Positions 18,101-57,323 of a stretch of 64,000 nucleotides of DNA are shown piece by piece. Source of the DNA: an uncultured Chloroflexia bacterium (GTDB taxonomy: Bacteria > Chloroflexota > Limnocylindria > Limnocylindrales > CSP1-4); contig CAVRGP010000011.1 in assembly GCA_963720755.1 (NCBI GenBank), positions 32,001-96,000 of the forward strand, in the 5' to 3' direction. The notes beneath the pieces were generated by a model that ran no database searches, was not told the DNA's origin, and saw only the letters and a program-made list of their open reading frames with translations. Each line of letters begins with the position of its first letter. Positions within the stretch are counted from its first letter, which is position 1. Position numbers and translations under genes: made by a program.

Positions 18101-18643
18101 GGCCGCCTCGCCGGTCAGGACCCCGGCCCTCGCCTCGATGGAAGGCCCAAGCGTTCGCACGGCGTCGACCAGTTCCAGTGCGGCCCGGACACCGCGCTCG
18201 GCATCATCCTCCCGGGCGACCGGGGCGCCCCAGACGGCCATGACCGCATCGCCGATGAACTTCTCGACCGTGCCGCCGTAGCGCTCGATGATGTCCCTGG
18301 CAAGTTCGAAGTAGCGGGTCAGCGTCTCGCGGACCTCTTCGGCGTCACGGCCCTCTGCGTAGGTCGTGAACCCGACCAGGTCGGCGAACAGGATCGTGAC
18401 GAGGCGCCGCTCCGCGACCGGCGCCGTCGTCGTCGCGTGGGCAGCCCCGGCCGCCGCGATACGTGGGGCAATGGCGGGAGCCGCCCCGGGGGTCAGCTGG
18501 GTTGCGCATTCACCGCAGAAGCGATCGCCGGGGTCGACCGCGGCGCCGCAATTCGGACAGCTGTTGGCGAGCGGGCTCGCACACCCGACACAGAACTTTC
18601 GTCCCGGCTTGTTCTCGGTGCCGCAATTCGAACAGATCGCCGT
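15113..18643 (-). CDS. Class III adenylate/guanylate cyclase with double zinc ribbon, STAND ATPase and TPR region
   Basis: 4x CxxC, FADLVGFT, EKFIGDAVMA, VNTASRLQ, GAAGVGKT, FEDFH; best RBS points to ACG 18643 (alternative TTG 18682). Confidence 0.9.
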   Translation of the reverse strand, partial: TAICSNCGTENKPGRKFCVGCASPLANSCPNCGAAVDPGDRFCGECATQLTPGAAPAIAPRIAAAGAAHATTTAPVAERRLVTILFADLVGFTTYAEGRDAEEVRETLTRYFELARDIIERYGGTVEKFIGDAVMAVWGAPVAREDDAERGVRAALELVDAVRTLGPSIEARAGVLTGEAAVTLDAVGQGMVAGDLVNTASRLQSVAPTGAVLVGELTQRAASKAIAFEAAGEQVLKGKTSPIPAWRAMRVVSERGGRNRSDALEAPFVGRSDELRLLKDLYHATSREQRPRLVSVIGAAGVGKTRLAWEFLKYIDGLVELVAWHDGRSPAYGDGITFWALGEMVRGRCGLLEADEEATTRTKIAETVATYVPDPDERRWVEAALLTLLGVESGVGSEQLFGAWRTFFERLAATGPVVMVFEDFHLADSGLMDFVDHLLEWSRNVPIYVVTLARPELLDRRSDWGVGKRAFNSLYLEPLDAASMRELLAGLVPGLPEAAARAIVDRADGIPLYAVETVRMLLAEGRLTLEDGTYRPVGDLSSLAVPDTLTALIASRLDALDPAERALVSDAAVLGQSFTVDGVAAVAGRDLATLEPALHDLVRREILELEADPRSPERGQYAFVQALIREVAYATLARSDRKVRHLAAARFFESLGSDELAGALAGHYLAAHANAPDGPERETLGTQARIALRAGAERAAGLGAHEQAIALSEQALSITSDPADEASLHDRAAASAASLQRVSISTSHYEAALALWAGLGDRSAEARTTAGFGWALLSFFHFEPALALLTEASERFRDLDDDAILAKLDGQLSRALFLNGDLTGSVAVADRVLSSAERVDLVEVVADTLITRGSALTHLGRPYEGIGAVETGRRLAAEHGFPMPENRGLNNLSALQGDHDPRASLEAARAGLAIARRFGIRSFHLFENARDAAMRLGEWDWIAAELSTLTDDEVDPLDRVTGLAGLTNLLAYRGEATAELVARLEAVAVSDDDTVKATAIADVMAGKAFAAGQYELARSRTHAYGRLLTQKHVEVNLRAGHDSVLARDAAAARQDLASVETIGRRGRVIEADVMTIEAGIAALEGRPREALDLYRSGLRLWRDLGTVWDEALCAIEMTTLLGPGEPEVRAAAERAREILVRLRARPFLERLEATMAEWSPVDPVTPTTIQEAAPVG

Positions 18644-18733
18644 GGCCGAACCCTCCTGATGGTCGAAGCGTAGCGTAGCCAAAGGCCTTCCCCCGCGTCC
18701 ACGCTACTGTGTCGGCGACAGGGAGGGCTAGCC

Positions 18734-19717
18734 ACGACCGAGACCGATCCGGATCATCTCCCAGCACTCGGCCGGCGGAACGACCGTCTGCTGATGGTCG
18801 CCATGCTCGGCTACGCGCTGTTGGTCGTCGTGATCATGTTCGAGCGCGGGCTGGCGCTCACGCCGGATGTCCTGGCGGTGGCGTTCGGCCTGTCGGCGGT
18901 CATCCTCGGTCGGGGCCGGCTCTTCCTCCGGGACTGGATCCCGTTCATCGCCCTGCTCCTCGCCTACGAGTTGATGCGCGGGATCGCCGACGACACGGGG
19001 TTGTCCGTCCACGTGCAGGACATGGCCATCGCCGAGCGCCTCCTGACCTTCGGAGCGCTCCCGACCCACATCCTCCAGTCCGCCCTTCGCCCGGCTACCG
19101 GGACGGACCCATTCGCCATCCTCGCGACCACCGTGTACATGCTCCACTTCGCATTGCCGCTGGCGACCGGCTACGTGCTGTGGGTCTGGCGCCGCCCGCA
19201 GTTCTACGATTTCGTGGCCGGTCTCATCGTCCTGAGCCTGGCCGGGTTCGTGACCTACCTGCTCATCCCCGCGGCGCCGCCGTGGTACGTCGCGCGGGCC
19301 GGCGGGCTGGCCGGGCCGGACGGCGCCCCCCTGATCGAGTACCTCAAACCCGCGGCCTTCGAGGAGATCGCGAGAGCGCTCGGGTTCGACGGCAAGTACC
19401 TGTATTCGATGGCGTTCGGGAGCGTGAACCCGAACCTGGTGGCGGCGTTCCCGTCACTCCATGTCGCCTATCCGTTCCTGACCTTCCTGGCCCTGCGTCG
19501 AGCGTTCGGACGGGTCGGTTGGCTGGCCTTCGGGTACGCCGTCCTGGTGGCCTTCTCAGTGATCTACACGGGCGATCACTGGCTGATCGACGTCATCGCC
19601 GGGATGGCCTACGCGTACGTGGCCTTCTATCTCGTCGTGGACTCCCCGCCGTGGCTTCGGGCTCGGATCGACCGGGCCTGGTCGACGGTCAGCTCATTCA
19701 GGCCGCGGCGGCGATGA
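18734..19717 (+). CDS. PAP2 superfamily (AUR1/IPC-synthase-like) membrane protein
   Basis: PAAPPW, AAFPSLHVA, DHWLIDV; RBS points to ACG 18734 (first ATG 18794). Confidence 0.8.
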   Translation, partial: TTETDPDHLPALGRRNDRLLMVAMLGYALLVVVIMFERGLALTPDVLAVAFGLSAVILGRGRLFLRDWIPFIALLLAYELMRGIADDTGLSVHVQDMAIAERLLTFGALPTHILQSALRPATGTDPFAILATTVYMLHFALPLATGYVLWVWRRPQFYDFVAGLIVLSLAGFVTYLLIPAAPPWYVARAGGLAGPDGAPLIEYLKPAAFEEIARALGFDGKYLYSMAFGSVNPNLVAAFPSLHVAYPFLTFLALRRAFGRVGWLAFGYAVLVAFSVIYTGDHWLIDVIAGMAYAYVAFYLVVDSPPWLRARIDRAWSTVSSFRPRRR

Positions 19718-19961
19718 GCTCCGCGAGGACCTCGTCCGAGGGTTCCATCGCGAGGGTCCCGTCGGGGGTCACGACGACCGGCGTGGAGCGGAACCCGGCA
19801 TCGTGGAGTCGGTCCCGGATCGCCATGTCCCGGTCGAGCCGGACGTAGCGGAACGCCCGTCCGGCGGCAACGAACCGAGCGCGTGCTCGAGTCGTGTCCT
19901 CGCAGGTGTCGAGGCCGTAGATGACGGTGACCGTGGGATCCCGGAAGTCGTCGTTGCTCAC
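19698..19961 (-). CDS. Glutaredoxin/mycoredoxin-like protein, CxxT
   Basis: VIYGLDTCEDT, GFRSTPVV..PDG..EPS. Confidence 0.75.
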   Translation of the reverse strand: MSNDDFRDPTVTVIYGLDTCEDTTRARARFVAAGRAFRYVRLDRDMAIRDRLHDAGFRSTPVVVTPDGTLAMEPSDEVLAELIAAAA

Positions 19962-19977
19962 GGGGTCCAGTCTGGCA

Positions 19978-20655
19978 TCAGGCGAGGCTGAACGTCAGCT
20001 GGATGCTGTCCCAGTTGAGGATCAGGTCGCCGATCCCGACGGCCACCAGGAGGAGCCCGCTGACGATCTCGATCGCCCGGTGGTGACTGGTGATGAACCG
20101 GACGACCTGGACGCGCCGGGCGCCGGCCAGCAGCGACAGGAGGACCAGCGGCAGCCCGAACCCGAGGCCATAGGCGAGGAAGGTGAGGATCCGCGGGAGT
20201 GTCTCGGTCAGGCCGACCGAATAGGCGATGAGCGAGATGGCGAAGACGCCCGCGCATGGCAGCGCGAGTGGGCCGAGCATCACGCCATACAGGTAGGCCT
20301 GGCCGAACGGGTTGGCCACGATCGGGACGGTCGTCCCCGGCAGGCGCTCGAACGGGTTGCGACCGGACAGGAGGAGCAGTCCCAGCGCGATCAGCACGAA
20401 GTCCACCGCCGGGATGAGGAAGGCCAGGAGCGACCCGATCGGGACGGCCACGATGACGAGGACGACCGCGACCGCGAGCATCGTGGTCAGGACACCACCC
20501 AGGATGATCAGACCGAGGAACCCGGTCCCGCGCCGACCGGCGAGCGCCCCCGTGTTGGCCGACAGGTAGGCGAGGAAGCTTGGGTAGAGCGGGAGCAGGC
20601 ACGGGCTGGCGGCACTGGCGAGCCCCAGCGAGAACGCCAGCCAGAGACCCTCCAG
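19978..20655 (-). CDS. ccdA: CcdA/DsbD-type transmembrane thiol-disulfide electron transporter
   Basis: Frame extends past the track's ORF start to SPCLLPLYPSFLAYL; second Cys in LPCAG; GLGFGLP; apparent CTG start at 20655. Confidence 0.85.
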   Translation of the reverse strand: MEGLWLAFSLGLASAASPCLLPLYPSFLAYLSANTGALAGRRGTGFLGLIILGGVLTTMLAVAVVLVIVAVPIGSLLAFLIPAVDFVLIALGLLLLSGRNPFERLPGTTVPIVANPFGQAYLYGVMLGPLALPCAGVFAISLIAYSVGLTETLPRILTFLAYGLGFGLPLVLLSLLAGARRVQVVRFITSHHRAIEIVSGLLLVAVGIGDLILNWDSIQLTFSLA

Positions 20656-20657
20656 GT

Positions 20658-21348
20658 CTAGGCTCCGTTCGCCTGGGCGAGGCTGACGATGTCGCCGACG
20701 CTCTTGCGTCCAAAGTCGGTCAGGGTCACTTTGCCGTCCGTCCCGATCACCACGATCGGCGTCGACGGCGGGTTGAGCACCTGGTCGCCGAACTCGGCGG
20801 CAAGCGCACGGGCGACCTTCGCGCCGGCGACGGCGTACTGGCCGGGGAAGCTATTGCTCTTGCGGTACCGGGCGAGACTGGTCGCGTCCTCACTCGGATC
20901 GATATCGAGGACGACGTAGCTGACCGAATCGGCCGGAAGCTGTCCGAGCGCCGAACGGACGTCGCCCTGCTGGGCGCGGCATGTGGGGCACCAGATGGCC
21001 ATCGTCTCGATGATGATGACCTTGCCGGCTTGGTCGGCGATCCGGAAGCTCTCGCCGGTCGTCACGTCGACGAGCTCGGCCGTTGCCCACGCCTGGTCCA
21101 GGATCGGAGCGAGGCCGACGGAATGGCTGGCCATCGCGGTCGCGGTCGCGGTCGCGCGCCGTCCCGGCCGGGGTCGTCGCCGGGGAGGCCGATGCCGCAT
21201 CCGCCGACGGGGCGGCGCTCATGGCCGCAGGTGACGGCTCCCCGGTCGCTGCTTGTCCGGCGCCTGTGCACGCTGACAGGGCGAGCGACAGGGCGGCGAC
21301 GGTCACGGCCAGGCCGGCCAGGCCGGCCAGTCGGTGATGGTCGGTCAT
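20658..21348 (-). pseudogene. TlpA-like thioredoxin lipoprotein with a frameshift near 21155
   Basis: RBS + ATG 21348 and lipobox LSAC in one frame, WCPTC domain in another; span 691 nt = 3n+1. Confidence 0.75.
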
Positions 21349-21469
21349 GAGTTCCTCTTTTCGATGGGTGGCCCAGCATGACGGATCCACGTGACGTTCC
21401 CGTGACCGGTCGCTCCGCTGGTACCGTGACCGAAACGCGAACCATTCGGGGCATCGAAGGGAGGTCGTC

Positions 21470-21883
21470 ATGACGGAGTACTCGGGGACCGGGACCAGGG
21501 AAGACCCGTGGATGCTCAAGACACCGCCGGGCACGTCCGACTATCAGATGTACCTCGATGAGGCCGCGGACCCGCCGGTGATCGTGTGCCAGGTCGGTGG
21601 CACGCAGCTCAAGTACGACCGGCGCGCGATCGACGACCTCCACGCGATGCTCAAGGCCCACGGCGACTGGATGCCCCTCGGCGGGGCGGATGAGCAGAAG
21701 ACCCCGCAGGAGGGCACGGTCGAGGCGTGGGGTCGGTCGGCCGACAACCCGATCGGCGGCTGGTATGGCACGAAGAAGGGTCTTCGTGGCCGGTTCGGCG
21801 TGTACATGCCGCCGTTGCTCGAGGCGCTCGGGCTCGCCGAGGTCACCCACGACCCGAAGAACAACCGGATGCGGGCCCGCTAG
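21470..21883 (+). CDS. Conserved hypothetical protein (possibly DUF6855)
   Basis: GGAGG RBS, strong GC3 bias; family recalled from DPW.LKTPP..S and NPIGGWYG.KKGLRGRF. Confidence 0.7.
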   Translation: MTEYSGTGTREDPWMLKTPPGTSDYQMYLDEAADPPVIVCQVGGTQLKYDRRAIDDLHAMLKAHGDWMPLGGADEQKTPQEGTVEAWGRSADNPIGGWYGTKKGLRGRFGVYMPPLLEALGLAEVTHDPKNNRMRAR

Positions 21884-21898
21884 GCCCGGTCCGGCGCG

Positions 21899-22609
21899 TT
21901 ATCCGGGTACGGCCGTCGCGGCCGCCGCGAACGAGGCCATGTCCGGGAAGGTCGCGTCCGGCGTGGCCTGCGCCGGCGGGGTCGCCCCAGACCCCGGCCG
22001 TCCCTGGCGCCGGTCGATCCAGACGGTGGTCAGCCCCAGGCGCTTGGCCGTCACGTGGTCGTGGAACAGGCTCTGGGCGACGTGGAGGATCCGGTCCCGG
22101 GGTACCCCGATGCGCTCGAAGGCGACCTCGAAACCACGCTCGTTCGGCTTGTACGCGCCGACCTGCTGTGCCGTCACCACCCAGTCGAAGTCGGTCTGCA
22201 GACGGGTCGCCGATCGGGCGAACAGGTCGTCGTCGCAGTTGGTGATGACGCCCAGGCGGAAGCGCGACTGGAGCCGCCGGAGGGCCGCCGTCGAGTCTGG
22301 GAAGGCCGGCCACCGACCCACGGAGTCGGAGAACCCATTCACCTCGGCCGGGGTCGGGACCACGCCGAACCTCGCCGCCACGCCCAGGAGCGCGAATGCA
22401 AGGATGTCTCGATAGCGCAGGTACGGCCCGGCTTCCGCCCGTGCCTCCAGCGTGGCGTACTCCTCGAGCAGCCGGTCGTCGGTCGCCTCGATCCCGCGCG
22501 GCGCCAGGACTGCCTGGAGTCCGGCGAGGATCCCGGCCTCCCAATCGATGAGCGTCCCGTAGCAATCGAAGGTGATGGCGTCGAATCGCCTGTAGTCGAG
22601 GCCTGTCAT
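21899..22609 (-). CDS. Haloacid dehalogenase type II-like HAD hydrolase
   Basis: [29 protein letters not shown]. Confidence 0.9.
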
Positions 22610-22667
22610 CGGCCTATCTTGCCGAAAGCCGACCGGCGGTGCACGGACGCTGCTAGCATCCGGGCTG

Positions 22668-24344
22668 ATGGCAGCGAAGCGCTATGACTTCATCATCGTC
22701 GGTGGTGGCTCAGCCGGCTGTGTGCTCGCCAACCGGCTGTCGGTCGATCCGGGGACGCAGGTGCTCGTCATCGAGGCCGGGCGGCCGGACTATCGCTTCG
22801 ATGTCTTCATCCACATGCCGGCGGCGTTGACCTTCCCGATCGGCAGTCCCTACTACGACTGGCAATACGAGTCCGAACCGGAGCCGTTCATGGGCGGTCG
22901 CCGGATCTACCACGCCCGGGGCAAGGTCCTCGGTGGCTCGTCGAGCATCAACGGCCAGATCTTCCAGCGCGGCAATCCGCTCGATTACGAGCGCTGGGCG
23001 GCCGATGCGGGCATGGGGTCGTGGGACTACGCCCACTGCCTGCCCTACTTCAAGAAGATGGAGACGTGCCTCGCCGCGGCCCCGGACGACCCCTGGCGCG
23101 GACATGACGGCCCGCTGATCCTCGAGCGCGGCCCGGCGACCAACCCGTTGTTCACCGCCTTCTTCGCTGCCTGCCAGGAGGCCGGCTACCACCTGACCGA
23201 GGACGTCAATGGGTACCGGCAGGAGGGCTTCGCCCCGTTCGACCGGAACATCCACAACGGCCGCCGACTGTCCGCATCGCAGGCCTACCTGCGTCCCGTT
23301 CGCGGTCGCAAGAACCTCACGGTCCGGACGCGAACCTTCGTCAGCGGCGTCGTCTTCGACGGCAGGCGGGCGGTCGCCGTCGACATCGAGCGACGCGGTG
23401 GCGGGACCGAGCGGATCGAGGGCGGCGAGATCATCCTGGCGGGTGGTGCGATCAACTCCCCCCAGCTCCTGCAGTTGTCGGGGGTCGGGGCTGCGGCGGA
23501 CCTCGCGACCCTCGGCATCCCGGTCGTGGCCGACCTGGCCGGTGTCGGGGCCAACCTGCAGGACCACCTCGAGGTCTACATCCAGTACAAGTCGCTCCAA
23601 CCGGTGTCCATGCAACCGACGGCGACCCAGAAGTGGCGCCGGCCGTTCATCGGCGCGGAGTGGCTGTTCCTGCGCCGTGGTCCGGGGGCCACCAACCATT
23701 TCGAAGGCGGCGGTTTCGCTCGCTCGAATGACCAGGTCGCCTATCCGAACCTGATGTTCCACTTCCTGCCGCTCGCGATCCGCTACGACGGGAGCGCCGG
23801 ATCCGCGGGCCACGGCTATCAGGTGCACGTCGGGCCGATGTACTCGGACGCTCGCGGCACGGTCTCACTCAAGACGACCGACCCGCACGACCATCCCGCG
23901 CTCCGTTTCAACTACCTGTCGACCGAGCAGGATCGCCAGGAGTGGGTCGAGGCCGTCAGGGTCGCCCGGCGGATCCTGAACCAGCCCGCCCTCGAGTCGT
24001 TCAACGGGGGCGAAACCTCGCCCGGAGCTTCCGTGACGACCGACGACGAGATCCGCGACTGGGTCGCACGCGATGGCGAGACCGCGTTGCACCCCTCGTG
24101 CACGGCGCGGATGGGCGTCGATGGCGACTCGGTCCTCGACCCGACCACGATGCGGGTCCACGGCGTGGATGGTCTGCGCGTGGTCGATGCCTCTGCGATG
24201 CCGTACGTGACCAACGGCAACATCTACGCGCCGGTGATGATGCTCGCGGAGAAGGCCGCTGACCTGATCCTGGGGAATACGCCGCTGCCGCCGCAGGACA
24301 CACCCTTCTACCGGCACGGTCAGGCCGACCCGACGGCCAGGTGA
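22668..24344 (+). CDS. betA: Choline dehydrogenase (GMC oxidoreductase)
   Basis: [52 protein letters not shown]. Confidence 0.9.
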
Positions 24345-25144
24345 GCGCGACGCAGTCCGACACGCGCCAGATCGACCAGATCGTCCGCCTCGTGCGCGCC
24401 GTCCTCGGCGCCGATGCGATCGGGGCGTACCTCCACGGTTCGACCGCCCGAGGCGAACTCCGGCCGCACAGCGATATCGATGTCCTCGTCGCGTCGGCGC
24501 GCCCGACGACGCCGCAGGAGAAGCGGACCCTGATCGATCGTCTCCTACGGATGTCTGGGCGCGGAGATCCGAGCGGGCGCGCCCGATCGATCGAACTGAC
24601 CATCGTCGTCGACGCCGAGATCCGGCCCTGGCACTACCCACCGCGCTTCGATTTCCTGTACGGCGACTGGCTGCGGCCCGACTTCGAGGCCGGAAAGCTG
24701 ACGCCGTGGGAGACGCCGAACCCGGATCTGGCGCCCATCATCACGATGGCTCGCCTCGGCGACCGGGCGGTCTTCGGCCCACCGCCGGCGACCTATTTCG
24801 ATCCGGTCCCGCGGGCCGATCTCGACCGGGCGATCGTGGCCGGGATCCCGGGTCTGCTCGACGACCTCGACTCCGATACCGCCAACGTCAGCCTGACCTT
24901 CGCCCGGATCTGGGTGACCCTCGCAACCGGCGAGATCCGATCCAAGGATGCCGCCGCCGAGTGGGTCCTCGATCGACTGCCGGAAGAGCATCGGCCGGTC
25001 CTGATCCGTGCTCGGGCCGTCTATCTCGGTGACGAGGACGACCGCTGGGACGACCTGCGCGCCGAGGCCCGGTCGTTCGCCGAGTACGTCATCGGCGAGA
25101 TCGAATGGCTCTCGACGGACGAATCGCCTCGGGCCGGCACGTGA
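24341..25144 (+). CDS. Aminoglycoside adenylyltransferase-like (ANT(9)/AadA fold, DUF4111)
   Basis: [57 protein letters not shown]. Confidence 0.85.
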
Positions 25145-25229
25145 CCAGATCGCCTCGCCGCTTGACCGGGATGCCGATCGGCAGGGAACATCCGCGCACT
25201 AGGTCAGCGCTTGCCCAGGAGGACAGACC

Positions 25230-25595
25230 GTGACGGCCCCGACCACTGTCGACGAGTACCTGGGCGCCCTGCCCGACGAGCGCCGGACGGTTCTCGAGGG
25301 CATCCGGGCGACGATCCGGGCGGCGGCTCCCGACGCCACCGAATCGATCGCCTACCAGATGCCGGCGTTCCGCTCCAACGGGCGCTTTCTCGTCTCCTAC
25401 GCCGCGTTCAAACGACATTTCAGCCTGTTCCCGGCGAGTGACGCCGTCGTGGCGGCTGTCGGTGGCGAGCTGGAACCATTCCTGGCCGAAAAGGCGACGA
25501 TCCGCTTCACCACCGACGACCCCATCCCGCTGGACCTCGTGACGAGGATCGTGGAGGTTCGGCTGGCGGAACTGGCCGGAACGAACGGGTCATGA
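25230..25595 (+). CDS. DUF1801/YdhG-like protein
   Basis: TVDEYL..LP, A.ESIAYQMPAF, YAAFKRHFSLFP, KATIRF. Confidence 0.85.
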   Translation: MTAPTTVDEYLGALPDERRTVLEGIRATIRAAAPDATESIAYQMPAFRSNGRFLVSYAAFKRHFSLFPASDAVVAAVGGELEPFLAEKATIRFTTDDPIPLDLVTRIVEVRLAELAGTNGS

Positions 25596-25633
25596 TCGCC
25601 GGCGACGACCCGGTGGCAGAACGAGGAAACCGC

Positions 25634-26578
25634 ATGCGCATCGGGATCGTGCTCCCCATCGCCGAGGATGACGGAGGTGCGGGCATCCTCAGCTACGTCC
25701 AGATCCGCGACGTGGCCGTGGCCGCCGAGCAGGCCGGGCTGGACTCGGTCTGGGTGTTCGATCACCTGCTCTACCGGTTCGACGGTGAAACGACCGGGAT
25801 CCACGAGTGCTGGACGATCCTTGCCGCGATCGCCGAGGCGACGAAGCGGGTCGAGCTCGGGACCATCGTCATGTGCACCTCCTTTCGGAACCCGGCGCTG
25901 CTGGCCAAGATGGCGGCCACGCTCGATCACCTCAGCGGCGGCCGGCTCATCCTCGGGATCGGCGCGGGCTGGCACGATCCCGAATACGACGCATTCGGCT
26001 ATCCGATCGATCACCGGGTCGGCCGGTTCGAGGAGGCATTGACGGTCATCCGGGGGCTGATCCGCGATGGTCGAGCGGATCTCGATGGCCGGTACGTCAC
26101 GGCCCGCGATGCCGTCCTTCGCCCGCCGGCGCGGCCGGACCTGCCCATCCTGATCGCCGCGAAACGCCCCCGGATGCTCGAACTGACCGCCCGTCATGCC
26201 GATGCCTGGAATCTCGCCTGGTTCGGCCTTCCGGACGAGCGACTGGCGCGGGTGCGTGGCGAATTGCTGGAGACGTGCCGACGGGTCGGCCGCGATCCCT
26301 CGACCTTGGCGTTGACGGTCGGGATCACGGTCCGCTACCCGTCGCTCGCGCCGTCGGGGGCGGGCGAAGCCGATGCTCCACAGACACCGGGGCTCACCGG
26401 AACGCCTGCCGAGATCGCCGACGGTCTGCTGGCCCATGCCCAGGCCGGCGCCGCCCACGCGATCGCGGTCCTCGAGCCGTGCACGCCGGAGACCGTAGAG
26501 GCGTTCGCCGAAGCGGTCGAGTTGTTCCGGGCGAAGTGGGGCACCGCGGCCGGATATGAGGCGGCGCCGTCCGCCTAG
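25634..26578 (+). CDS. LLM-class flavin-dependent oxidoreductase
   Basis: DSVWVFDH, FRNPALLAKMAATLDHLSGGRLILGIGAGW. Confidence 0.9.
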   Translation: MRIGIVLPIAEDDGGAGILSYVQIRDVAVAAEQAGLDSVWVFDHLLYRFDGETTGIHECWTILAAIAEATKRVELGTIVMCTSFRNPALLAKMAATLDHLSGGRLILGIGAGWHDPEYDAFGYPIDHRVGRFEEALTVIRGLIRDGRADLDGRYVTARDAVLRPPARPDLPILIAAKRPRMLELTARHADAWNLAWFGLPDERLARVRGELLETCRRVGRDPSTLALTVGITVRYPSLAPSGAGEADAPQTPGLTGTPAEIADGLLAHAQAGAAHAIAVLEPCTPETVEAFAEAVELFRAKWGTAAGYEAAPSA

Positions 26579-27477: not shown

Positions 27478-27565
27478 GACGTGGATGCTCGCATGGATCC
27501 GATTACGTCACGATGTGCGCCGAAACCAGCCGGGACCACGGATCCGTGGTACCTTCGGCCCAGAC

Positions 27566-28174: not shown

Positions 28175-28182
28175 CCGCCCGA

Positions 28183-28620
28183 TCAGGCAGGTGGCTCCCA
28201 TCCCGGTGGCGCGAGCTCGAAGCCCTCGAATCGGAAGGCCGGTGCGACGATGCACCCGACCAGCGTCCAGTCGCCCAGCGGACGGGCTGCCTGCCAGACC
28301 CCGGCCGGGACGACCGCCTGCACGACCCCGTCGCCATCGAGGTCGCCGGACAGGCGATGGACCATCACCTCGCCGTCACCCTCGGCCCACGTCCGCAACT
28401 CGAGCGGGTCGCCGGCGGCGAACTGCCAGACCTCGTCCGCATCCACCCGGTGCCAATGGGACCGTTCCCCCGCGGCGAGCAGATAGAGGATCGCGCTGCT
28501 GCTCGGTCGAGCGCCCTCGTCCGCCTGCGCCCGCCACGTCTCGGCGTACCAGCCGCCCTCGGGGTGGGCGACCAAGCCGTATGCGGCGATCGCCTGTTCC
28601 GTCCGCGTGAGTCGGTGCAT
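28183..28620 (-). CDS. Cupin_5 (DUF985) protein
   Basis: HPEGGWY.ETWR, SAILYLL, SHWHRVDADEVW, CIVAPAFRFEGFEL. Confidence 0.9.
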   Translation of the reverse strand: MHRLTRTEQAIAAYGLVAHPEGGWYAETWRAQADEGARPSSSAILYLLAAGERSHWHRVDADEVWQFAAGDPLELRTWAEGDGEVMVHRLSGDLDGDGVVQAVVPAGVWQAARPLGDWTLVGCIVAPAFRFEGFELAPPGWEPPA

Positions 28621-43898: not shown

Positions 43899-43995
43899 GG
43901 GAGCGGTCGGGTCCCGGTGGGTCCCCTGGTCTTCAAAACCAGTGGCGCGGCGCTCGGCGCGGCGCGGTGGGTTCGACTCCCACGCGTTCCCGCCA
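43899..43995 (+). tRNA. selC: tRNA-Sec (anticodon UCA)
   Basis: 6-bp D stem with CGGU loop, CTGGT-CTTCAAA-ACCAG arm, long variable arm, GTGGG-TTCGACT-CCCAC, G discriminator + CCA. Confidence 0.95.
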
Positions 43996-45402: not shown

Positions 45403-45408
45403 CCACCG

Positions 45409-47828: not shown

Positions 47829-47856
47829 GCCGTCGGCGGATCGCGGGCCGGGTGGA

Positions 47857-49509: not shown

Positions 49510-49581
49510 GGTCGGAGCATCGCATGCCGCCCGCGACCGGGCCGGCGAATCTCGCCCGTCGCGACGAGCTAGCATCGGCGG

Positions 49582-50136
49582 ATGACCAGTGTCCAGCTCC
49601 TCCACGCGGGGTATGCCCGACCTGACGGCCGCGTCGGCAGCAGCATCGTCCTGGTCCGCGACGGTGATGCTGTCATCGTGAGCGACCCGGGGATGGTCGC
49701 CCACCGCTCGCTGATCCTCGACCCACTGGCCGCGGCAGGGGTCGTCCCGGATGCCGTCACCCACGTCTTCCTGAGCCACCACCACCCGGACCACACCGTC
49801 AACATCGCCCTGTTCCCGAATGCCGAGGTGGTCGACTTCTGGGCCCGCTACCGCGACGACCTGTGGCTCGATCACGACGGCGACGGTCACCGGCTGGGCC
49901 CGAACAGCGAGCTATGGCTGACTCCCGGGCACACCGAGGAGGACGCCAGCCTCATCGTCACCGCGGATGATGCCGTCTACGCGATGACCCACCTGTGGTG
50001 GTATCAGGATCGGACCCCCGAGGTCGATCCGCTCGGGTCGGACCAGGCGGCGATCGAACGCGGCCGGGAGCGGGTGCTGGCCGCTGCCGATATCGTCATC
50101 CCAGGCCACGGGGCACCGTTCCGGGTCAGCGACTGA
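49582..50136 (+). CDS. Metallo-beta-lactamase-fold hydrolase
   Basis: DPG, SHHHPDH, TPGHT, PGHG. Confidence 0.85.
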   Translation: MTSVQLLHAGYARPDGRVGSSIVLVRDGDAVIVSDPGMVAHRSLILDPLAAAGVVPDAVTHVFLSHHHPDHTVNIALFPNAEVVDFWARYRDDLWLDHDGDGHRLGPNSELWLTPGHTEEDASLIVTADDAVYAMTHLWWYQDRTPEVDPLGSDQAAIERGRERVLAAADIVIPGHGAPFRVSD

Positions 50137-50145
50137 CCGTCTCGG

Positions 50146-50892
50146 TCAGTCCGCCGCGCGGCGCGCCACGATATTCAGTCGGACATAGTCGATCATCGGC
50201 TCCGGCAGCCGGCTCGCGACCGCGCGGACGAAGGCGTCGCGCTCGGCCGTGGGCAGTCGGTCGAGGTGAGCGCCGAGGATCACCGTCCGGAGGTAGGCCT
50301 CGAACGGCTCGCCCGGCTCGAACCAGGTCGGCTCATCCTGGAGCCAGCACTCGATGTCCACGAACCCGGCCGCATCGAGCCGACGGGCCGTTTCCATCGG
50401 GCCCTGGAAGTTCGCGTCGCCCAGCCAGCCGTCCCCGACCGTCGCCAGGACGCTCTGGACCGCCGCGATGTTGTCCCCACCACCACATTGGGCGACGAGC
50501 CAGCCACCGGGGCGGACGATGCCGGCCAGGTTGTCGAACAGCGCATCGTGATCGGCGATCCAGTGGAAGGTGGCCGTCGACAGCACGGCGTCCACGGCCA
50601 CGTCGAGTGGGAGCGGCATTCGCAGGTCGGTCTCGATGAACCGGACGCGATCGGCGTAGCGCGCCAGGCGGCCCCGCGCCACGTCGATCATGGCCGGCGA
50701 GGCATCCACGGCGATGACCTGGCCGCGCGGCAACCGTTCCGCCAGCAACTCGGTCACCCGACCGCTCCCGCAACCCGCGTCGAGGACCCGCTCGTCACCG
50801 GCCAGTGGCAGTCGGTCGAGGACGGCCGCGCCCCAGCGCGTTGCCGGGTCGGCGACCCGATCGTAAGCCCGTCCGTCCCAGTCGCGGACCAT
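50146..50892 (-). CDS. Class I SAM methyltransferase (Tam-like)
   Basis: VLDAGCGSG, VDASPAM, STATFHW, YVRLN. Confidence 0.85.
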   Translation of the reverse strand: MVRDWDGRAYDRVADPATRWGAAVLDRLPLAGDERVLDAGCGSGRVTELLAERLPRGQVIAVDASPAMIDVARGRLARYADRVRFIETDLRMPLPLDVAVDAVLSTATFHWIADHDALFDNLAGIVRPGGWLVAQCGGGDNIAAVQSVLATVGDGWLGDANFQGPMETARRLDAAGFVDIECWLQDEPTWFEPGEPFEAYLRTVILGAHLDRLPTAERDAFVRAVASRLPEPMIDYVRLNIVARRAAD

Positions 50893-50894
50893 CG

Positions 50895-52481
50895 TCAGTC
50901 GCCTGGCACGGATGGATCGGCGAGCCCAGACGCGGCGACTCGCCGACCCGATGGTTCGCGCAGCCCATACCAGGAGATGAGTGCGCCGATCACCAGCAGG
51001 GCGGCACACACCAGCATGGCCAGGTGGAACGCCTCGATCGAGGCATGATTCGATGCAGCCACCTGGGCGGGCGTTGCGGCCGCACCCGGGGGGTTGAGCG
51101 GCTGGAAGATCTTGCGGACGGCGGGATCGGCCGTATCGATCCCCGTCGATCCTCCGAGTGAGGCGTAGTAGACGGCGCTGATGGGGATGAAGATGAGCGC
51201 ACCGAGCAGCGGCTGGCCCACCCGTGAGATCGAATTGTTGACCGCCGAGCCGATCCCCGAGAAGCGACCGGAGATCGAGCCCATCAGCGCGTTCGTGAGC
51301 GGGGCCACGACCAGCGAGATCCCCAGTCCGAACAGCAGCGTGTACGGCACCACGTCTGTGAACACCGAAACCGGCGGGACGAGGCTGGCCGCGTCCTCGA
51401 GCGAGGCCCGCCAGGGCGCCGAATCGAACGGCAGACGCGTGAACCAGAGCACGCCGGCGGCCATCAGCAGCGGGCCGGCGACCAGGAACGGCCGCGAGCC
51501 GATCCGGCCCGCGAGCGTCCCGACTCGGGTCGACAGCAGCGCCAGCATGAGGCCCGTCGGCAGGCCGACGATGCCGGCCCCGAGGGCCGTGTAGCCGATG
51601 GCGCCCTGGAGAATGACCGCCTGGTAGAAGAACGTGACGTACAGGCCACCGTAGATGAAGAACGTTGCGAGGTTGACCGAGGCGAACACCCGCGATCGGA
51701 AGAGGCCAAGCGGCACGAGTGGGTGCGGCCGGCGAGCCATCAGGATCGGGAAGGCCACCAGCGCGACCACCCCGATCGCGATGGCGATCCATGCGGCCGC
51801 ATCGGCCCAGGCATTGGCTCCACCGCGGATCACCCCGAACGCGAGCCCGCCGACAGCCAGTGCGGCGACGAACGCCCCGAGCCAGTCGAACCGACCGGTC
51901 GCCTCCTCGTCGCGTGACTCCGATACGTGGGTGAGCGTGGCCCACAGGGCGAACGTGAGGAGAGGGACGTTGATCAGGAAGGCGACCCGCCAACCGACCG
52001 TGTCCACGATCGTCCCCCCGATGATCGGCCCGAGCACGAGCAATGCCGAGGTCGCGGCCGCCCACATCCCAAAGGCGCGAGCGCGCTGGACGCCATCGAA
52101 GGCATGGGTGATCAACGCGAGGGAACCGGGGATGAGCAACGCTCCGGCCGCCCCCTGGAACAGGCGGAACACGACCAGGATCTCGAGCGTCGGCGCGAGC
52201 CCGCACAGGGCGGAGGTCAGGCCGAAGCCGATCAGACCGATGGCGTAGACGCGCCGCCTGCCGTAGTAGTCGGATAGCGCCCCGGCCAGGATGAGCAGGG
52301 CGGCCAGCACGGCCAGATAGCCACCGACGATGTAGGCCTGGCCCTCCAGGACGCCGATCATGGAGCCGGGCAGGTCGGTGCCGATGTGTCGGAGGGCGAC
52401 GTTGACGATGGTCCCGTCGAGGAAGACCGCTCCCGAGCCGATGACCGTGCAGATGATCGTCCAGCGTTGGCGTCGGGTCAT
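50895..52481 (-). CDS. DHA2-type MFS transporter
   Basis: DGTIVNVAL, GALSDYYGRRR, GPIIGG....GWR.AFLINVP. Confidence 0.9.
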   Translation of the reverse strand: MTRRQRWTIICTVIGSGAVFLDGTIVNVALRHIGTDLPGSMIGVLEGQAYIVGGYLAVLAALLILAGALSDYYGRRRVYAIGLIGFGLTSALCGLAPTLEILVVFRLFQGAAGALLIPGSLALITHAFDGVQRARAFGMWAAATSALLVLGPIIGGTIVDTVGWRVAFLINVPLLTFALWATLTHVSESRDEEATGRFDWLGAFVAALAVGGLAFGVIRGGANAWADAAAWIAIAIGVVALVAFPILMARRPHPLVPLGLFRSRVFASVNLATFFIYGGLYVTFFYQAVILQGAIGYTALGAGIVGLPTGLMLALLSTRVGTLAGRIGSRPFLVAGPLLMAAGVLWFTRLPFDSAPWRASLEDAASLVPPVSVFTDVVPYTLLFGLGISLVVAPLTNALMGSISGRFSGIGSAVNNSISRVGQPLLGALIFIPISAVYYASLGGSTGIDTADPAVRKIFQPLNPPGAAATPAQVAASNHASIEAFHLAMLVCAALLVIGALISWYGLREPSGRRVAASGLADPSVPGD

Positions 52482-52576
52482 GCAGGCTCCGGCGGGGCGC
52501 TCGAGAGCGCGATGGTGTCCCGGGGCAGTTTCGCAGCGACGACGGGGTTCGGGCAAGGGACCGCTAGACTCGACCG

Positions 52577-53284
52577 ATGCCTGGACCCGTGGCGCTCGTC
52601 GGCGCCGGTGAGTTCCTCCCTGCGATGCTCGGTTTCGACGATTCGCTGCTCAGGTCGAGCGGCCGGACCAGACCGCGGGTTGTCATCCTGCCGACCGCGT
52701 CGTACCCGGATGGCCCGTCCGTGTTCGCGGACTGGGCGGCCCGCGGTGTCGCCCACTTCAGCCAGCTTGGTGCCGAAGTCGAGCCGGTCCTGGTTCGCGA
52801 TCGCCTGGGAGCCGACGACCCGGCGGCCGCGCAGGCCATCGGCGAGGCCGATCTCGTCTACCTCTCCGGTGGGAAGCCGTCGTACCTGCTGGACTCCCTG
52901 CTCGGGAGCGCGGTCGCGGCGGCCCTCGTCGATGCGCATGCGAGAGGCGCGATCCTGGTCGGTTGCTCGGCCGGCGCGATGGCGCTCGCCGCCCGGACGT
53001 TCGAACTCCGGGCCGGCGCTGCCCCGTGGCCACTTCGCTGGCGCGATGGTCTCGGGTTCGTGCCGGGCATGTCGGTCGTGCCCCATTACGACGCCTGGCC
53101 GGAGGCGTTGTCTGCGCTCATCGCGCTCCAGGCGCCTCGGGCGTCGGTCGTGCTCGGGATCGACGAGGAGACGGCCGTCGTCGGGCGGGACGGGGCGTGG
53201 CAGGTATACGGCCGGTCGAGGGTCACGGTCTGGCGCGGGCGGCGGCGCGATCGCTACCGGGCCGGCGAGACCTTTCGGCTGTGA
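52577..53284 (+). CDS. Peptidase S51 (dipeptidase E/cyanophycinase-like)
   Basis: ILPTAS, YLSGG, GCSAGA nucleophile, PHYD, GIDEET. Confidence 0.85.
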   Translation: MPGPVALVGAGEFLPAMLGFDDSLLRSSGRTRPRVVILPTASYPDGPSVFADWAARGVAHFSQLGAEVEPVLVRDRLGADDPAAAQAIGEADLVYLSGGKPSYLLDSLLGSAVAAALVDAHARGAILVGCSAGAMALAARTFELRAGAAPWPLRWRDGLGFVPGMSVVPHYDAWPEALSALIALQAPRASVVLGIDEETAVVGRDGAWQVYGRSRVTVWRGRRRDRYRAGETFRL

Positions 53285-53294
53285 GCCGTGCCGG

Positions 53295-53633
53295 TCAGTC
53301 GGGTCGGACGGTCCGGAAGCAGTCCGAGCAGTACACCGGACGATCCATCCGCGGCTTGAACGGGACCTGGGCCTGGTTGCCGCACGACGAGCAGACGACG
53401 GCGAAGTACTCGCGACTCGCCCGGTCGTCGCCGCGCTCGTAGCCGCGTGGGCCGCCGATCTCGCGCGCGTCGTAGCCGCCATCCCGGCTCGCTCGGCGGC
53501 TGGCACGGCAACTGGTGCATCGCTTCGGGTCGCTGACGAAACCCTTCTGCTGGTAGTACTCCTGATCGGCCGCGGAGTGGATGAATTCCACCCCGCAATC
53601 GACACAGTTCAGGGTCCGATCGACGTAGGTCAC
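53295..53633 (-). CDS. Zinc-ribbon + CxxC-x17-CxxC protein
   Basis: DRTLNCVDCG..KGF..PKRCTSC; CSSCG....VPFKP...RPVYCSDC; GGAGG RBS. Confidence 0.9.
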   Translation of the reverse strand: MTYVDRTLNCVDCGVEFIHSAADQEYYQQKGFVSDPKRCTSCRASRRASRDGGYDAREIGGPRGYERGDDRASREYFAVVCSSCGNQAQVPFKPRMDRPVYCSDCFRTVRPD

Positions 53634-53852
53634 GATGCTCCTCCGAGGGGCAATACAGGTCAGGGGTGTGCCAGTCGCGGGGCGGCCGCATCAGCAGTCG
53701 GGACGTGCAGGTCTGGCGGAGTTGGCCGGGACACGCGCCCAGGTGCCGATGTTGGGTCCCTGTCGCTCGGGGCGCACCGGTTCGATGACCGCGAGGATAC
53801 ATCGACTCGGCGAAATGGGCTGTCGAAGCATCGTCTGCCCGCGGCTGCAGCC

Positions 53853-53871
53853 GTGACACCGTACCTGTCAC
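53853..53871. promoter_or_regulatory. Palindrome GTGACA-N7-TGTCAC, putative operator
   Basis: Perfect 6-bp arms in the divergent intergenic region before sbcD. Confidence 0.4.
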
Positions 53872-53967
53872 AATGTCGACGGACCTTTGCTTCGGCGAGC
53901 GGGGAGTCATGGGGGCGCCTCGCTCGCACCGTTCGCCTCGGGCCGCGAGGAGGGACCCCGCCACCTG

Positions 53968-55134
53968 ATGCTCAGGATCATCCATACGGCCGATGTCCAC
54001 CTCGGGGCGCGTCATGACGACCTCGGCGAGCAGGCGGCCGCCCAACGGGAACGCCAGTTCGCCGCATTCCAGGCCGCGGTGGACCTCGCCATCACGGAGC
54101 GGGTCGACCTCTTCCTGGTCGCGGGCGACCTGTTCGACTCGAACGTCCAGCCGCGCCGCTCGGTCGAACGCGTCGCCGCCGAGCTCAAGCGTCTGGCCGA
54201 CGTTCGGATCCGATCCGTGATCATCCCGGGCACCCATGACGTCTACGATCGGGCATCCATCTACCGCGCCTACGACCTGCCCGCGATGGCTGGGCTCGGC
54301 CAGGACTCGGACCTGATCACCGTCCTTCACCCGGATCGGTCGTCGGTCCATCTCGCGTCGCTCGACGCGGTGGTGATCGGCAAGGTCTTCGCGACCAAGC
54401 GCGCGCCAGCCAGTCCGCTCCTCGGCATCGGCGCCCTCGCGGATCAGCCCGCAACCTGGCGGATCGGGATGGTCCACGGCTCGATCTCGATCCCGGGCAA
54501 GACGGATCGCGACGAGGTCGTGATCACATCCGAAGAGATCGCCGCAAGCGGGTTCGACTATCTCGCCCTCGGGCACTGGCATTCCGCCCAGGTCGGCAAG
54601 CTCGGGTCCGTGACCTATGCCTACGCGGGCGCGCCGGAAGCGGTCGCCCTGGACCAGGATCGCGCCGGCAAGGTCCTGCTCGTCGAGCTCGAGGAGCGGG
54701 ACGGGCAGCGGTCCGTGACCGTCGAGGAACGGCAGGTGGGCCGGACGAGGTTCCTCAAGCAGGAGATCGATGCCGCCGCCATCGCCAGCCAGCCGGCCCT
54801 GATCACCCTGCTGGCTGCCCACGCGAGCGAGGATCTGGTCCTGGACGCCCGACTCGTCGGCGTTCGGCCGGACGACCTGGACCTGGATCTCACCGAGGTC
54901 GAGGCCGCCCTCGTGACCTCGTTCCTCAAGGTTCGGGTCCGCGACGCATCCGTCCCGGCCCTGACCGAGGGTCCGTTGCCGTCCGAGGACACGATCGCCG
55001 GTGCGTTCATCCGCGACCTCGAAGCACGGATCAAGGCCCTCGAGGCCTCCGGATCCACGGCGGAGGCCGCCGAAGATCGCGACGCTCTGCGCCTTGGGCG
55101 GCTGCTCCTCGCCGGTCACGAGGTGTCCCTGTGA
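53968..55134 (+). CDS. sbcD: SbcD/Mre11-family (YhaO-like) nuclease
   Basis: HTADVHLG, AGDLFD, PGTHD, HG, YLALGHWH, YAGAPE. Confidence 0.85.
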   Translation: MLRIIHTADVHLGARHDDLGEQAAAQRERQFAAFQAAVDLAITERVDLFLVAGDLFDSNVQPRRSVERVAAELKRLADVRIRSVIIPGTHDVYDRASIYRAYDLPAMAGLGQDSDLITVLHPDRSSVHLASLDAVVIGKVFATKRAPASPLLGIGALADQPATWRIGMVHGSISIPGKTDRDEVVITSEEIAASGFDYLALGHWHSAQVGKLGSVTYAYAGAPEAVALDQDRAGKVLLVELEERDGQRSVTVEERQVGRTRFLKQEIDAAAIASQPALITLLAAHASEDLVLDARLVGVRPDDLDLDLTEVEAALVTSFLKVRVRDASVPALTEGPLPSEDTIAGAFIRDLEARIKALEASGSTAEAAEDRDALRLGRLLLAGHEVSL

Positions 55135-57323
55135 GGGTCAGGCGGATCAGCGGTGAGCAGTTCCGTCGATACCCGACATTCGATATCGAACTCGCTCCGG
55201 GGCTGACGGTCGTCCGCGGCCCCAACGAGGCGGGCAAGACGACGATCCAGCGAGCGCTCGAGCTTGCCCTGACCCGGCGCGCGACGAGCACAGCCGCTGA
55301 ACTCGAGGCGCTTCGCCCGTGGGGAGCACCGGCAGATGTCCGCTCCACCATCACGGTCGAGTTCGAGCAGGACGATGAGGATGGCCGCAAGTCCGGGACG
55401 CTCGAGAAGACGTTTGCCGGGGCCCGTGGCACGGTCCGGCTCGATTACGACGGTCAGTCGATCACCGATCCTGCGTTGGCCGATCAGGTCCTCGCGGAGT
55501 TGACCGGCATCCCGACCGAGGGGTTCTTCCGGTCCACGGCGTCGGTCCACCACTTCGAACTGAGTGACCTGTCACGCGACGAGGGTGCGCTGCGCGATCG
55601 TCTCCAGTCATCCATCAGCGGGGCGGACCGGGGGACGAGCCGGGCGCGCAAGAAGCTGGACAAGGCACTCCACGACCTGACCACCAAGGGCGAGCGGAAT
55701 CCCGGCCGCCTCAAGGTCGCAGAGCAGGCGGTCGAGCAGGCTCAGGCAGCCCTGGACCAGGGCGAGCTGGCGCTTGCCCAGCTCGAACGCGACCGGGATG
55801 CGGCGTCGTCGGCGCGCGACCGCCGGACGGAAGTGGAGCTCGCGCTCGCGGAGCGACGCAGCCTGCTGGAGAAGGCTCGTCAGGCTGAGCGTCTGGTGGC
55901 CGAACGCACGGCTGCGAGCGAGCGCTACGAACGCTACCGCCAGGCGGTCGAGGTCGCGGCGGAGCTGGATACGCTCGCCGGTGCGCACCCATCGCCCAAT
56001 CCACTCCCGGTCGTCCGGGCAACGGTGGAGCGCCTGCGCGTGCTCGACGGCCGCGCCCGTGAGCTGCGCGCCGCGTTGGCCGGTGAGGTCGAGGTCTCGT
56101 TCGATGTCGAACCCGAACCGACCTGGCGCCCGTTGTCACGCGTCTCGATCGCGATGGTGGTCATCGGGATCCTCCTTGCGGCCGGTCCGGTCATCCTGAG
56201 TCTCCTGGGGATCACGGGCCAGGTCGTGGTCGTCCAGGCGATCGGCGCCGTCGTCGCGCTGGTCGGCGTGGCCGTCGCCGCTGTTGCCCTGTGGCTGCGT
56301 CGCAGCGACAAGATGCATGCCCAGCTGCGCGACGTGGAGATCGATCGGCGCCTTCGCGGGCGGTCCGAGATCGAGGCGGAACTCCGGGACGTCGAGGCGA
56401 AGACCGCCGGCCAGCTCGGGTCGCTCGGTCTGGCCGACCTCGCCGAGGCCGAGGATCTGCTGGCCCGTGAAGAGGCGCACGTCGCCAAGATCGACCGCCT
56501 GTCGGCGCAACTCGAGGGCCTGGTCGGAAAGGAACCGAGCGAGACGCTGGCTCCCCAACGGGACGCGGCCGCGCTCGAGATCGAGCAGAAGACCAGCGCC
56601 ATCGAGGCGCTCGGACCGATCGCCAAGGAGCCACGGGCGCGGGAGCGGCTCGAGGTGGAGGTCCGCGATCAGGAGGGAGCCCTCGAGAGGGCACGCGACG
56701 ATGAGGCCAACGCGCGCGCCCGGGTCGAGGCCAACGCCGTCGATGCCGAACAGGTCGCCGGACAGGCCGAGCGCCTGGCCGCGTGGCGTGAGCAACTGGC
56801 CGGTGCGCAGCGTCGCCAGCGGGTGTACGCGACCACGCTGGCGGCGATCGATGCCGCGGAGCAGGCCACGATGAAGACCGCCACCAGGTATCTCGAGGCG
56901 CACATGGTCCGCGACCTGGCCGCCGTGACCGGCGGCCGCTACCGTCGAGTGCGGGTCGACGACAAGACGCTGGACATCGAGGTTCGGGCGCCAGAGAAGG
57001 GCGACTGGGTGTCAGTGACGTCCCTGAGCCAGGGGACGCTCGACCTGGTCTACCTCGTCGCTCGGCTCGGCCTGGTCAGGCTCGTCACCGGCGATCGTCG
57101 ACCGCCGCTCGTGTTCGACGATCCGTTCGTGACCCTTGACGACGAGCGGGCGGCTCGGGCCCTCGGCCTGCTCCGGTCGGTCGCGGCCGACTTCCAGGTC
57201 ATCTACCTGACGACTTCGCCGCGCTACGACAAGGCAGCGGACGCCGTCGTCGTCCTCGAGGGACCGACCAGTGTCGATCCGGGTGCCGAGGCCGACGCGG
57301 CACCGCCCTCGAGATCCGCCTGA
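55131..57323 (+). CDS. Rad50/SbcC-like (YhaN-type) ATPase with central transmembrane hairpin
   Basis: GPNEAGKTT, coiled coils, two hydrophobic helices, LSQGT signature, FDDPF. Confidence 0.85.
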   Translation: MRVRRISGEQFRRYPTFDIELAPGLTVVRGPNEAGKTTIQRALELALTRRATSTAAELEALRPWGAPADVRSTITVEFEQDDEDGRKSGTLEKTFAGARGTVRLDYDGQSITDPALADQVLAELTGIPTEGFFRSTASVHHFELSDLSRDEGALRDRLQSSISGADRGTSRARKKLDKALHDLTTKGERNPGRLKVAEQAVEQAQAALDQGELALAQLERDRDAASSARDRRTEVELALAERRSLLEKARQAERLVAERTAASERYERYRQAVEVAAELDTLAGAHPSPNPLPVVRATVERLRVLDGRARELRAALAGEVEVSFDVEPEPTWRPLSRVSIAMVVIGILLAAGPVILSLLGITGQVVVVQAIGAVVALVGVAVAAVALWLRRSDKMHAQLRDVEIDRRLRGRSEIEAELRDVEAKTAGQLGSLGLADLAEAEDLLAREEAHVAKIDRLSAQLEGLVGKEPSETLAPQRDAAALEIEQKTSAIEALGPIAKEPRARERLEVEVRDQEGALERARDDEANARARVEANAVDAEQVAGQAERLAAWREQLAGAQRRQRVYATTLAAIDAAEQATMKTATRYLEAHMVRDLAAVTGGRYRRVRVDDKTLDIEVRAPEKGDWVSVTSLSQGTLDLVYLVARLGLVRLVTGDRRPPLVFDDPFVTLDDERAARALGLLRSVAADFQVIYLTTSPRYDKAADAVVVLEGPTSVDPGAEADAAPPSRSA

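Follow-up and report, generated by a model that had tools for sequence, protein, structure and literature searches.

Conserved ACG and CTG codons as probable weak, gene-specific translation starts in an uncultured Chloroflexota genome

The stretch of DNA analyzed here, called the window throughout, comprises 64,000 nucleotides (nt) of contig CAVRGP010000011.1 from an uncultured Chloroflexota bacterium of the class Limnocylindria. It corresponds to G000:C11:32001-96000, where G000 is a genome bin of 3.01 Mb in 15 contigs with a G+C content of 68%. In four window genes the best-placed start codon is not one of the canonical ATG, GTG and TTG: a zinc-ribbon/cyclase gene (gene 1) and a PAP2-superfamily gene appear to begin at ACG, and a ccdA-like gene and an EamA/DMT transporter gene at CTG. 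An initial annotation of the window had listed these codons as ACG 18643(-), ACG 18734(+), CTG 20655(-) and CTG 57320(+), and each was found at that coordinate; its count of about 62 window genes was roughly right, as our own caller puts 54 wholly inside the window. Genes were called with a purpose-written codon-score caller, which returned 2564 genes and 87% coding DNA for G000, candidates were curated by eye, and products were named from Pfam profile matches. The same 60 genomes of the genus were used in every search; these are mutually related and hence are not independent observations. The features on which the argument depends are as follows.

15113-18643, minus strand: gene 1, coding sequence from ACG, stop included (Pfam Guanylate_cyc, AAA_16, DZR and TPR_12)
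18641-18643, minus strand: proposed ACG start codon of gene 1, in a Shine-Dalgarno (SD)-ACG block also found in genomes G064 and G018
18652-18656, minus strand: SD motif GGAGG of gene 1, 8 nt upstream of ACG
18680-18682, minus strand: rival in-frame TTG of gene 1, the likely choice of gene callers, 13 codons upstream of ACG
18721-18727, plus strand: SD motif GGGAGGG of the PAP2 gene, 6 nt upstream of ACG
18734-19717, plus strand: PAP2-superfamily membrane protein gene from ACG 18734-18736 (Pfam PAP2_3; orthologs)
18794-18796, plus strand: first canonical ATG in the PAP2 frame, where the public gene call (307 residues) begins
19978-20655, minus strand: ccdA-like (DsbD_TM-like) membrane protein gene from CTG 20653-20655 (orthologs)
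20479-20481, minus strand: first canonical ATG in the ccdA-like frame, where the public gene call (167 residues) begins
20658-21200, minus strand: upstream AhpC/TSA-redoxin-like gene (Pfam), whose TAG stop (20658-20660) ends 2 nt before the CTG
20663-20666, minus strand: SD motif GGAG of the ccdA-like gene, 7 nt upstream of CTG and within the end of the redoxin gene
55131-57323, plus strand: SMC/AAA_23-like ATPase gene (Pfam) upstream of the transporter gene, whose TGA stop (57321-57323) overlaps the transporter CTG
57320-58198, plus strand: EamA/DMT transporter gene from CTG 57320-57322 (Pfam EamA; ortholog junctions)

Gene 1 encodes a protein with a double zinc ribbon, a class III cyclase domain, AAA_16 and TPR according to Pfam. 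The SD motif before its ACG is conserved as GGAGG in G064 and reads GGGGAGGA in G018, and it stands at functional spacing in all three genomes (3/3). Across the 22 codons upstream of ACG, neither G064 nor G018 has an in-frame canonical codon, and TTG 18682(-) of G000 is out of frame in G064 through a 1-nt indel. Paralogs of gene 1 in other genomes carry ATG, GTG or TTG two codons before the first cysteine in 17 of 19 cases, and the paralog in G057:C7 (L050) has CTG at that start position, preceded by GAGGA and 9 nt. Counted from ACG, residue 4 of the protein is the first of the DZR domain. TTG 18682(-) lies just upstream of a TACGCT box resembling a -10 element, which by eye recurs before the paralogs and is a putative promoter element. 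The family to which gene 1 belongs (zinc-ribbon/cyclase/AAA_16/TPR) has undergone strong expansion in the genus; one genome has as many as 14 matches, and G000 has 4.

The PAP2 gene is transcribed in the opposite direction, and its frame in G000 contains no canonical codon earlier than ATG 18794. ACG together with its SD motif was present in 5/5 close orthologs, and a wider search added 3 further distinct loci to give eight sequences with G000 included. A GGAGG-type motif stands 6 to 9 nt before ACG in 8/8 of these distinct ACG-clade sequences; it is read in different frames across genomes, which argues that it is conserved as an RNA signal and not as protein. The conserved RN(D/E)RLL motif of the product lies between ACG and the first ATG of G000, while the residues directly after ACG vary, and in a paralog clade an ATG stands 15 residues before the RND motif, the same distance as ACG. 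Comparison of G000 with G064 shows 1-nt indels on either side of the intergenic region that gene 1 and the PAP2 gene share, indicating that the DNA upstream of the ACG codons is non-coding. In G000 the PAP2 ACG is preceded in frame by a CTG at 18707, which a 1-nt indel likewise puts out of frame in G064. Among the 19 loci shown by the wider search, 13 lack ACG, and most of these have ATG or GTG a few bases past a TAGATT-like box.

A similar arrangement was seen in the PAP2 orthologs L090-L101 and in the mutY orthologs L208-L235, where a -10-like box (TAGATT, TATCGT or TATCCT) is followed after 6 to 10 nt by ATG or GTG. This suggests that these orthologs have leaderless mRNAs and that leaderless starts may be common in the lineage.

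For the ccdA-like gene, the geometry described in the initial annotation was confirmed, with GGAG 7 nt away and the stop of the upstream gene 2 nt before the CTG, as was the need for this start if the cysteine of the SPCLLP motif is to be included. The frame contains 0 canonical codons in the 123 codons from the upstream stop (20850) to ATG 20481, and a start at that ATG drops 58 residues of the protein, the SPCLLP cysteine among them. Across five orthologs the start is CTG behind GGAG and a TAG stop in G000 and G018, the same codon is GTG in G014 and ATG in G015, and G002 has an ATG six codons upstream of the aligned codon. The gene name proposed earlier was only weakly supported. The CcdA/DsbD_TM family profile PF02683 matched with E = 0.14 and 11.9 bits, below its cut-off of 27.1, and the DsbD part of NF045694 with E = 2.5e-6 and 25.9 bits against a cut-off of 805, so no match exceeds a curated cut-off; the name depends on the SPCLLP motif and the sub-threshold DsbD matches. 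Both profile alignments begin at residue 6-7.

The fourth gene differs in having its CTG overlap a stop codon. As proposed earlier, CTG 57320 and the upstream TGA (57321-57323) combine in a 4-nt CTGA, and in the transporter frame the first canonical codon after the upstream stop is a GTG lying 51 codons downstream. Matches to the transporter were found in 59/61 genomes of the genus. The C-TG-A junction was present in 20/20 of the best orthologs (51-81% identity), at the aligned codon in 19 and one codon later in the remaining one. The last codon of the upstream gene varies (GCC, GTC, AGC, GGC, ACC or CCC), and its third base is always C. None of the orthologs (0/20) has GTGA, ATGA or TTGA at this junction, so no canonical counterpart to this CTG was seen. 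No in-frame canonical codon lies upstream in 16/20 orthologs, and in 14/20 the nearest downstream one is at least 37 codons away.

CTG also appears to serve as a start elsewhere in G000. The aligned first codon of mpg is CTG in 28/30 genomes of the genus, 24 of which have CTGA overlaps while four retain the CTG without overlap by an upstream stop, and in 29/30 no canonical codon lies within 12 codons on either side. Read by eye in other genera of the family, this codon is GTG in g9 and in two g5 genomes, ATG in g7 and CTG in g4. The Pfam MPG domain starts from residue 8, and the first canonical codon in G000 is at +38. At 17/23 loci a DUF4032/Kdo kinase-like gene (g743) is joined to one and the same upstream gene by an in-frame CTGA, shifted cases being judged by eye, and at one more locus CTG comes after a TAG. 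The upstream gene closes with K-K-L-stop, and its leucine is encoded by CTC, never by CTG. A further gene, g1437, has an SD motif and CTGA in G000 and ATG in G005.

Taken over the DMT, mpg and DUF4032 junctions (20/20, 24/30 and 17/23 in the CTGA form), C was kept at all 61 of the 61 junctions read. At stop-start junctions of G000 the base before TGA is otherwise A (245), G (165) or T (33). Where a gene ends in TGA and no downstream start overlaps it, the base before the stop is C in about 67% of cases (903/1356), and CTC and CTG are equally common leucine codons. Against a background of 67%, 61 out of 61 is not neutral, although the genomes are related and these are non-independent observations.

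To obtain a genome-wide rate, G000 was screened for genes in which 12 or more codons of coding-like sequence precede the first canonical codon (45 genes) and for CTGA junctions with no canonical codon from -30 to +10 codons (23 genes), the two lists together holding 64 genes. Comparison and homology support eight non-canonical starts: the four window genes, mpg, g743, g1437 and infC. For roughly seven others the G000 sequence by itself makes such a start plausible, namely mutY, a second EamA gene, two ECF sigma factors, a methyltransferase, a small membrane protein and a UbiA-family gene. The resulting 8-15 of 2564 genes, or 0.3-0.6%, is a lower bound, as two of the four window genes escaped the screen. 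The rate implied by the window, near 6% (4 of 54-62 genes), did not carry over to the genome and is well above the genome average established here. An ortholog tally against G005 (1.97 of 3.02 Mb; 803 pairs with at least 50% identity) yielded only two true cases, plus two G000 frameshifts.

Many other candidates were set aside. Most apparent N-terminal extensions in the G005 tally were off-frame or antisense alignments of conserved DNA, and 16 start candidates inspected on the G005 side were mostly frameshifts in G005. In G000, g574 and g1786 are frameshifts, and g2477 (an extra ACG candidate), g516, g1702, g1854 and g2368 are frameshifted or fragmentary genes. An ATG shortly downstream fits the family N-terminus in g300 (araA), g725 (ruvB), g2012 (truA) and g1556, and g995 was a false extension. 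The CTGA of mutY (g1738) is shared only with the 96%-identical G064, and most of 28 other loci have a -10-like box followed by GTG or ATG, leaving a CTGA start for mutY with little support. The candidate g606 proved to be prfB with its programmed +1 frameshift: this release factor 2 gene (G000:C2:101934-103124, plus strand) carries the classic site CTT TGA C.

Frameshifts of 1 nt break conserved genes at G000:C11:388485-389954, C11:139813-140334 and C13:7822-8334 and in g516 (alpha-amylase family, C2). These, and the many such sites in G005, could represent either assembly indel errors or real decay.

The DNA itself was checked against soil-metagenome contigs from 4 runs of one study, and 0 differing letters were found over 18643, 18734 and 20655; three contig records cover 18643 and 18734, and three cover 20655. 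One run is possibly the source sample; the independent support for the DNA lies in conservation in other genomes. A look-up of sequencing runs for 18000-21000 turned up no RNA run. The four codons occupy homology-defined positions and lack canonical alternatives there, and each is kept in sister genomes or aligned with a canonical start in them, a pattern beyond what chance would give.

Together, these observations make it probable that the four codons are genuine, gene-specific and selected weak starts, read by the ordinary initiator tRNA with the help of a second signal. The formyl-methionine initiator tRNA would read a near-cognate codon, with a first-base mismatch at CUG and a second-base mismatch at ACG, and initiation would be weak as a result. 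In both ACG genes and in the ccdA-like gene it would be helped by a GGAGG-type SD motif 6 to 8 nt upstream, whereas in the transporter gene and several genes elsewhere the 4-nt CTGA overlap would let the ribosome that terminates upstream restart. Selection may keep the weak codon in particular genes, probably for low output or for a small fixed ratio to the upstream protein. The decoding by formyl-methionyl-tRNA, the low output and the selection for it are inferred.

Similar starts are known in other bacteria. In Deinococcus, rpsL, dnaA and Deide_03051 have conserved CTG or ATC starts with N-terminal peptide evidence (Baudet et al. 2010, PMC2830850). Those starts resemble ours in being gene-specific, conserved in relatives and missed by gene callers; they differ in being proven by peptides. 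ACG occurs 0 times in the main text of PMC2830850. The autoregulatory start of infC, given in the same source as AUU in E. coli and ATA in Deinococcus/Thermus, is likewise a weak near-cognate codon conserved in a particular gene, and infC of G000 apparently uses ATC. The window genes differ from infC in that they do not encode translation factors, no feedback loop is evident and two of them use ACG, which lies outside the infC repertoire. With ATGA, GTGA and TTGA overlaps, which couple genes by termination-reinitiation, CTGA shares its 4-nt geometry and its conservation across relatives, the difference being the first base C at the DMT, mpg and DUF4032 junctions. CTGA was not found by text match in the available text of the gene-overlap papers PMC3887535, PMC10666635, PMC6728339, PMC2174442 and bioRxiv 10.64898/2026.09.10.750558. 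No natural bacterial ACG start was found in the literature searched, supplementary tables being outside its scope, and no literature was found on start codons in Limnocylindria.

Several observations weigh against reading the codons as selected weak starts. Junctions in other frames and with other stop types, taken as a control, were start-less in similar fractions (11/298 for NTGA, 3/67 for TGA at -2 and 5/27 for TAG), so this count alone fails to single out CTGA. A scan anchored on SD motifs showed no enrichment of CTG (39 vs 34 and 26). ACG was the most enriched codon 6 to 10 nt past orphan GGAG/GAGG motifs, but marginally so (48 vs 20 and 29; Fisher p = 0.0019 before correction for about 60 codons), and many of its matches are otherwise explained, several having an ATG 6 codons upstream. 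The UbiA-family prenyltransferase gene (g1277; G000:C11:652035-652856, L287-L309) is also instructive. Its N-terminus L-I-R-L-T-H-P-F-P is conserved, no canonical codon occurs from the upstream stop to +15 in 8/24 genomes, and the aligned leucine is encoded by CTC as often as by CTG. Three genomes carry ATG or TTG three positions upstream, and most others have ATC, GTC, CTG or CTC at that codon. A mere lack of canonical codons is therefore not enough to identify a start codon. Two of the window genes have possible competitors: G000 gene 1 has the in-frame TTG 13 codons upstream, which the initial annotation had not mentioned, and in 3/8 PAP2 sequences (G018, G015 and L089) an ATG or GTG stands in frame 6 codons before ACG, just ahead of the SD motif, and could be the real start there. 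Finally, initiation at CUG in E. coli reaches about 1-2% of that at AUG, and codons that fall outside the near-cognate group, including ACG, reach 0.1-1% (bioRxiv 10.1101/063800). Initiation at such weak codons, including ACG, still yields an N-terminal methionine according to the same source.

Of the other explanations, the one that survives best is the one that the initial annotation had favored, in which start fidelity is relaxed across the lineage by changes in IF3, the initiator tRNA or 16S rRNA while GC pressure neutrally turns ATG and TTG into ACG and CTG. We consider it unlikely. The 8-15 non-canonical starts, a lower bound, do exceed the two or three known in E. coli, the genome-wide SD signal is weak (789/1119 high-confidence starts have no GGAG within 25 nt), and the UbiA gene without canonical starts in a third of its genomes (8/24) fits as well. 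IF3 also has a C-terminal extension of about 120 residues, rich in Ala and Pro, absent from aligned solved IF3 chains and of unassigned effect. The parts of the machinery examined, however, look ordinary. The 16S 3' end of G000 is canonical (GGATCACCTCCTTTCT), and 6/6 initiator tRNAs inspected in sister genomes are canonical tRNA-fMet with a C1xA72 mismatch, A11 and three G-C pairs. In 57/60 sister genomes the anticodon stem-loop motif of the initiator was found with at most 1 mismatch. The initiator tRNA gene of G000 was not found in its assembly, whose sole CAU tRNA is not initiator-like. A special initiator-like tRNA for ACG was rejected, as both tRNA-Thr(CGU) genes are ordinary elongators.

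Inspection of infC, suggested at the outset together with that of tRNA-fMet, also told against relaxed fidelity. The gene (L073, G000:C15:509460-512708, about 1252-2123) has no usable canonical start, AGGGGA followed by 6 nt and ATC fits, and residue 2 of the product aligns with residue 1 of solved IF3, so that infC probably starts at ATC. Such dependence on a poor start codon makes sense only if IF3 still discriminates. Neutral drift is also at odds with C at 61/61 NTGA junctions, where the lack of any shift to G or A points to selection for a weak codon, and the genome-wide rate falls far short of the window's 6%. Generally sloppy initiation is thus not supported as the cause of the weak starts.

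Two tRNA genes deserve mention in their own right. The sole CAU tRNA of G000 (G000:C15:373213-373287) has G1-U72, C11-G24 and an A31-G39 mismatch, atypical for both initiator and elongator tRNA-Met, and might be tRNA-Ile2. ARAGORN also reported a tRNA-SeC with anticodon TCA at 43899-43995 of the window (G000:C11:75899-75995), and some in-frame TGA codons of G000 may encode selenocysteine.

Only slightly less probable than relaxed fidelity, and so also unlikely, is that translation starts elsewhere, at a downstream canonical codon, at a nearby weak codon such as the ATC at codon 3 of gene 1, or at the TTG (gene 1) or CTG (PAP2) found upstream in G000. All of these codons exist, and the public gene calls do begin at ATG 20481 and ATG 18794. 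Downstream starts, however, would cut away the SPCLLP cysteine helix, the first helix of the transporter, RNDRLL in the PAP2 protein and the zinc ribbons of gene 1, and amino-acid conservation reaches all the way to the proposed starts. In G064 the upstream TTG and CTG are out of frame, as described above, and a start at the ATC of gene 1 would leave 14 nt between it and the SD motif.

Editing of the mRNA from C to U, which would convert ACG to AUG and CUG to UUG as at plastid start codons, appears very improbable. All four codons are one C-to-U step from a canonical codon, and ACG is conserved and not replaced by ATG. Plastid ACG starts, whether edited to AUG or used unedited, resemble the present ones in having ACG at the homology-defined start position. 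Editing at plastid start codons belongs to an organellar system that employs PPR-DYW editing factors. The DYW deaminase profile PF14432 had 0 matches in G000, which is a weak test given that 0/14 control genomes matched. To our knowledge, no mRNA C-to-U editing system exists in bacteria. CTG is moreover an accepted bacterial start already, and the Deinococcus CTG starts were demonstrated by proteomics without editing (PMC2830850). Scarcely credible is the last explanation, assembly or sequencing error or decaying pseudogenes: frameshifted genes do exist in G000 (g574, g1786, g2477 and g516) and are numerous in G005, but the codons are identical in independently assembled genomes, the 3-4 run contigs are identical at three of the four sites, and the reading frames are intact and conserved.

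If the codons are selected weak starts, a more specific proposal can be made, which we hold tentatively as plausible though short of probable. Two weak signals may act as selected, built-in attenuators. In one, a strong SD motif would be paired with ACG, which would be an eighth natural bacterial start codon. In the other, C would be maintained against G, A and T in a CTGA overlap so that the downstream protein is made as a small fixed fraction of the upstream one.

These starts matter for annotation as well as for gene expression. Gene finders that allow only ATG, GTG and TTG cut the first helix or a motif from these proteins. The earlier expectation of truncation held for at least two of them, the ccdA-like and PAP2 proteins, whose calls at a downstream ATG are already public, which points to systematic N-terminal annotation errors in an abundant soil lineage. 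The start set of NCBI translation table 11 includes CTG and does not include ACG; if ACG with a strong SD motif does work as a bacterial start, that set would be incomplete. If CTGA overlaps are indeed selected, they would be a simple means, overlooked until now, of fixing the ratio at which neighboring genes are expressed.

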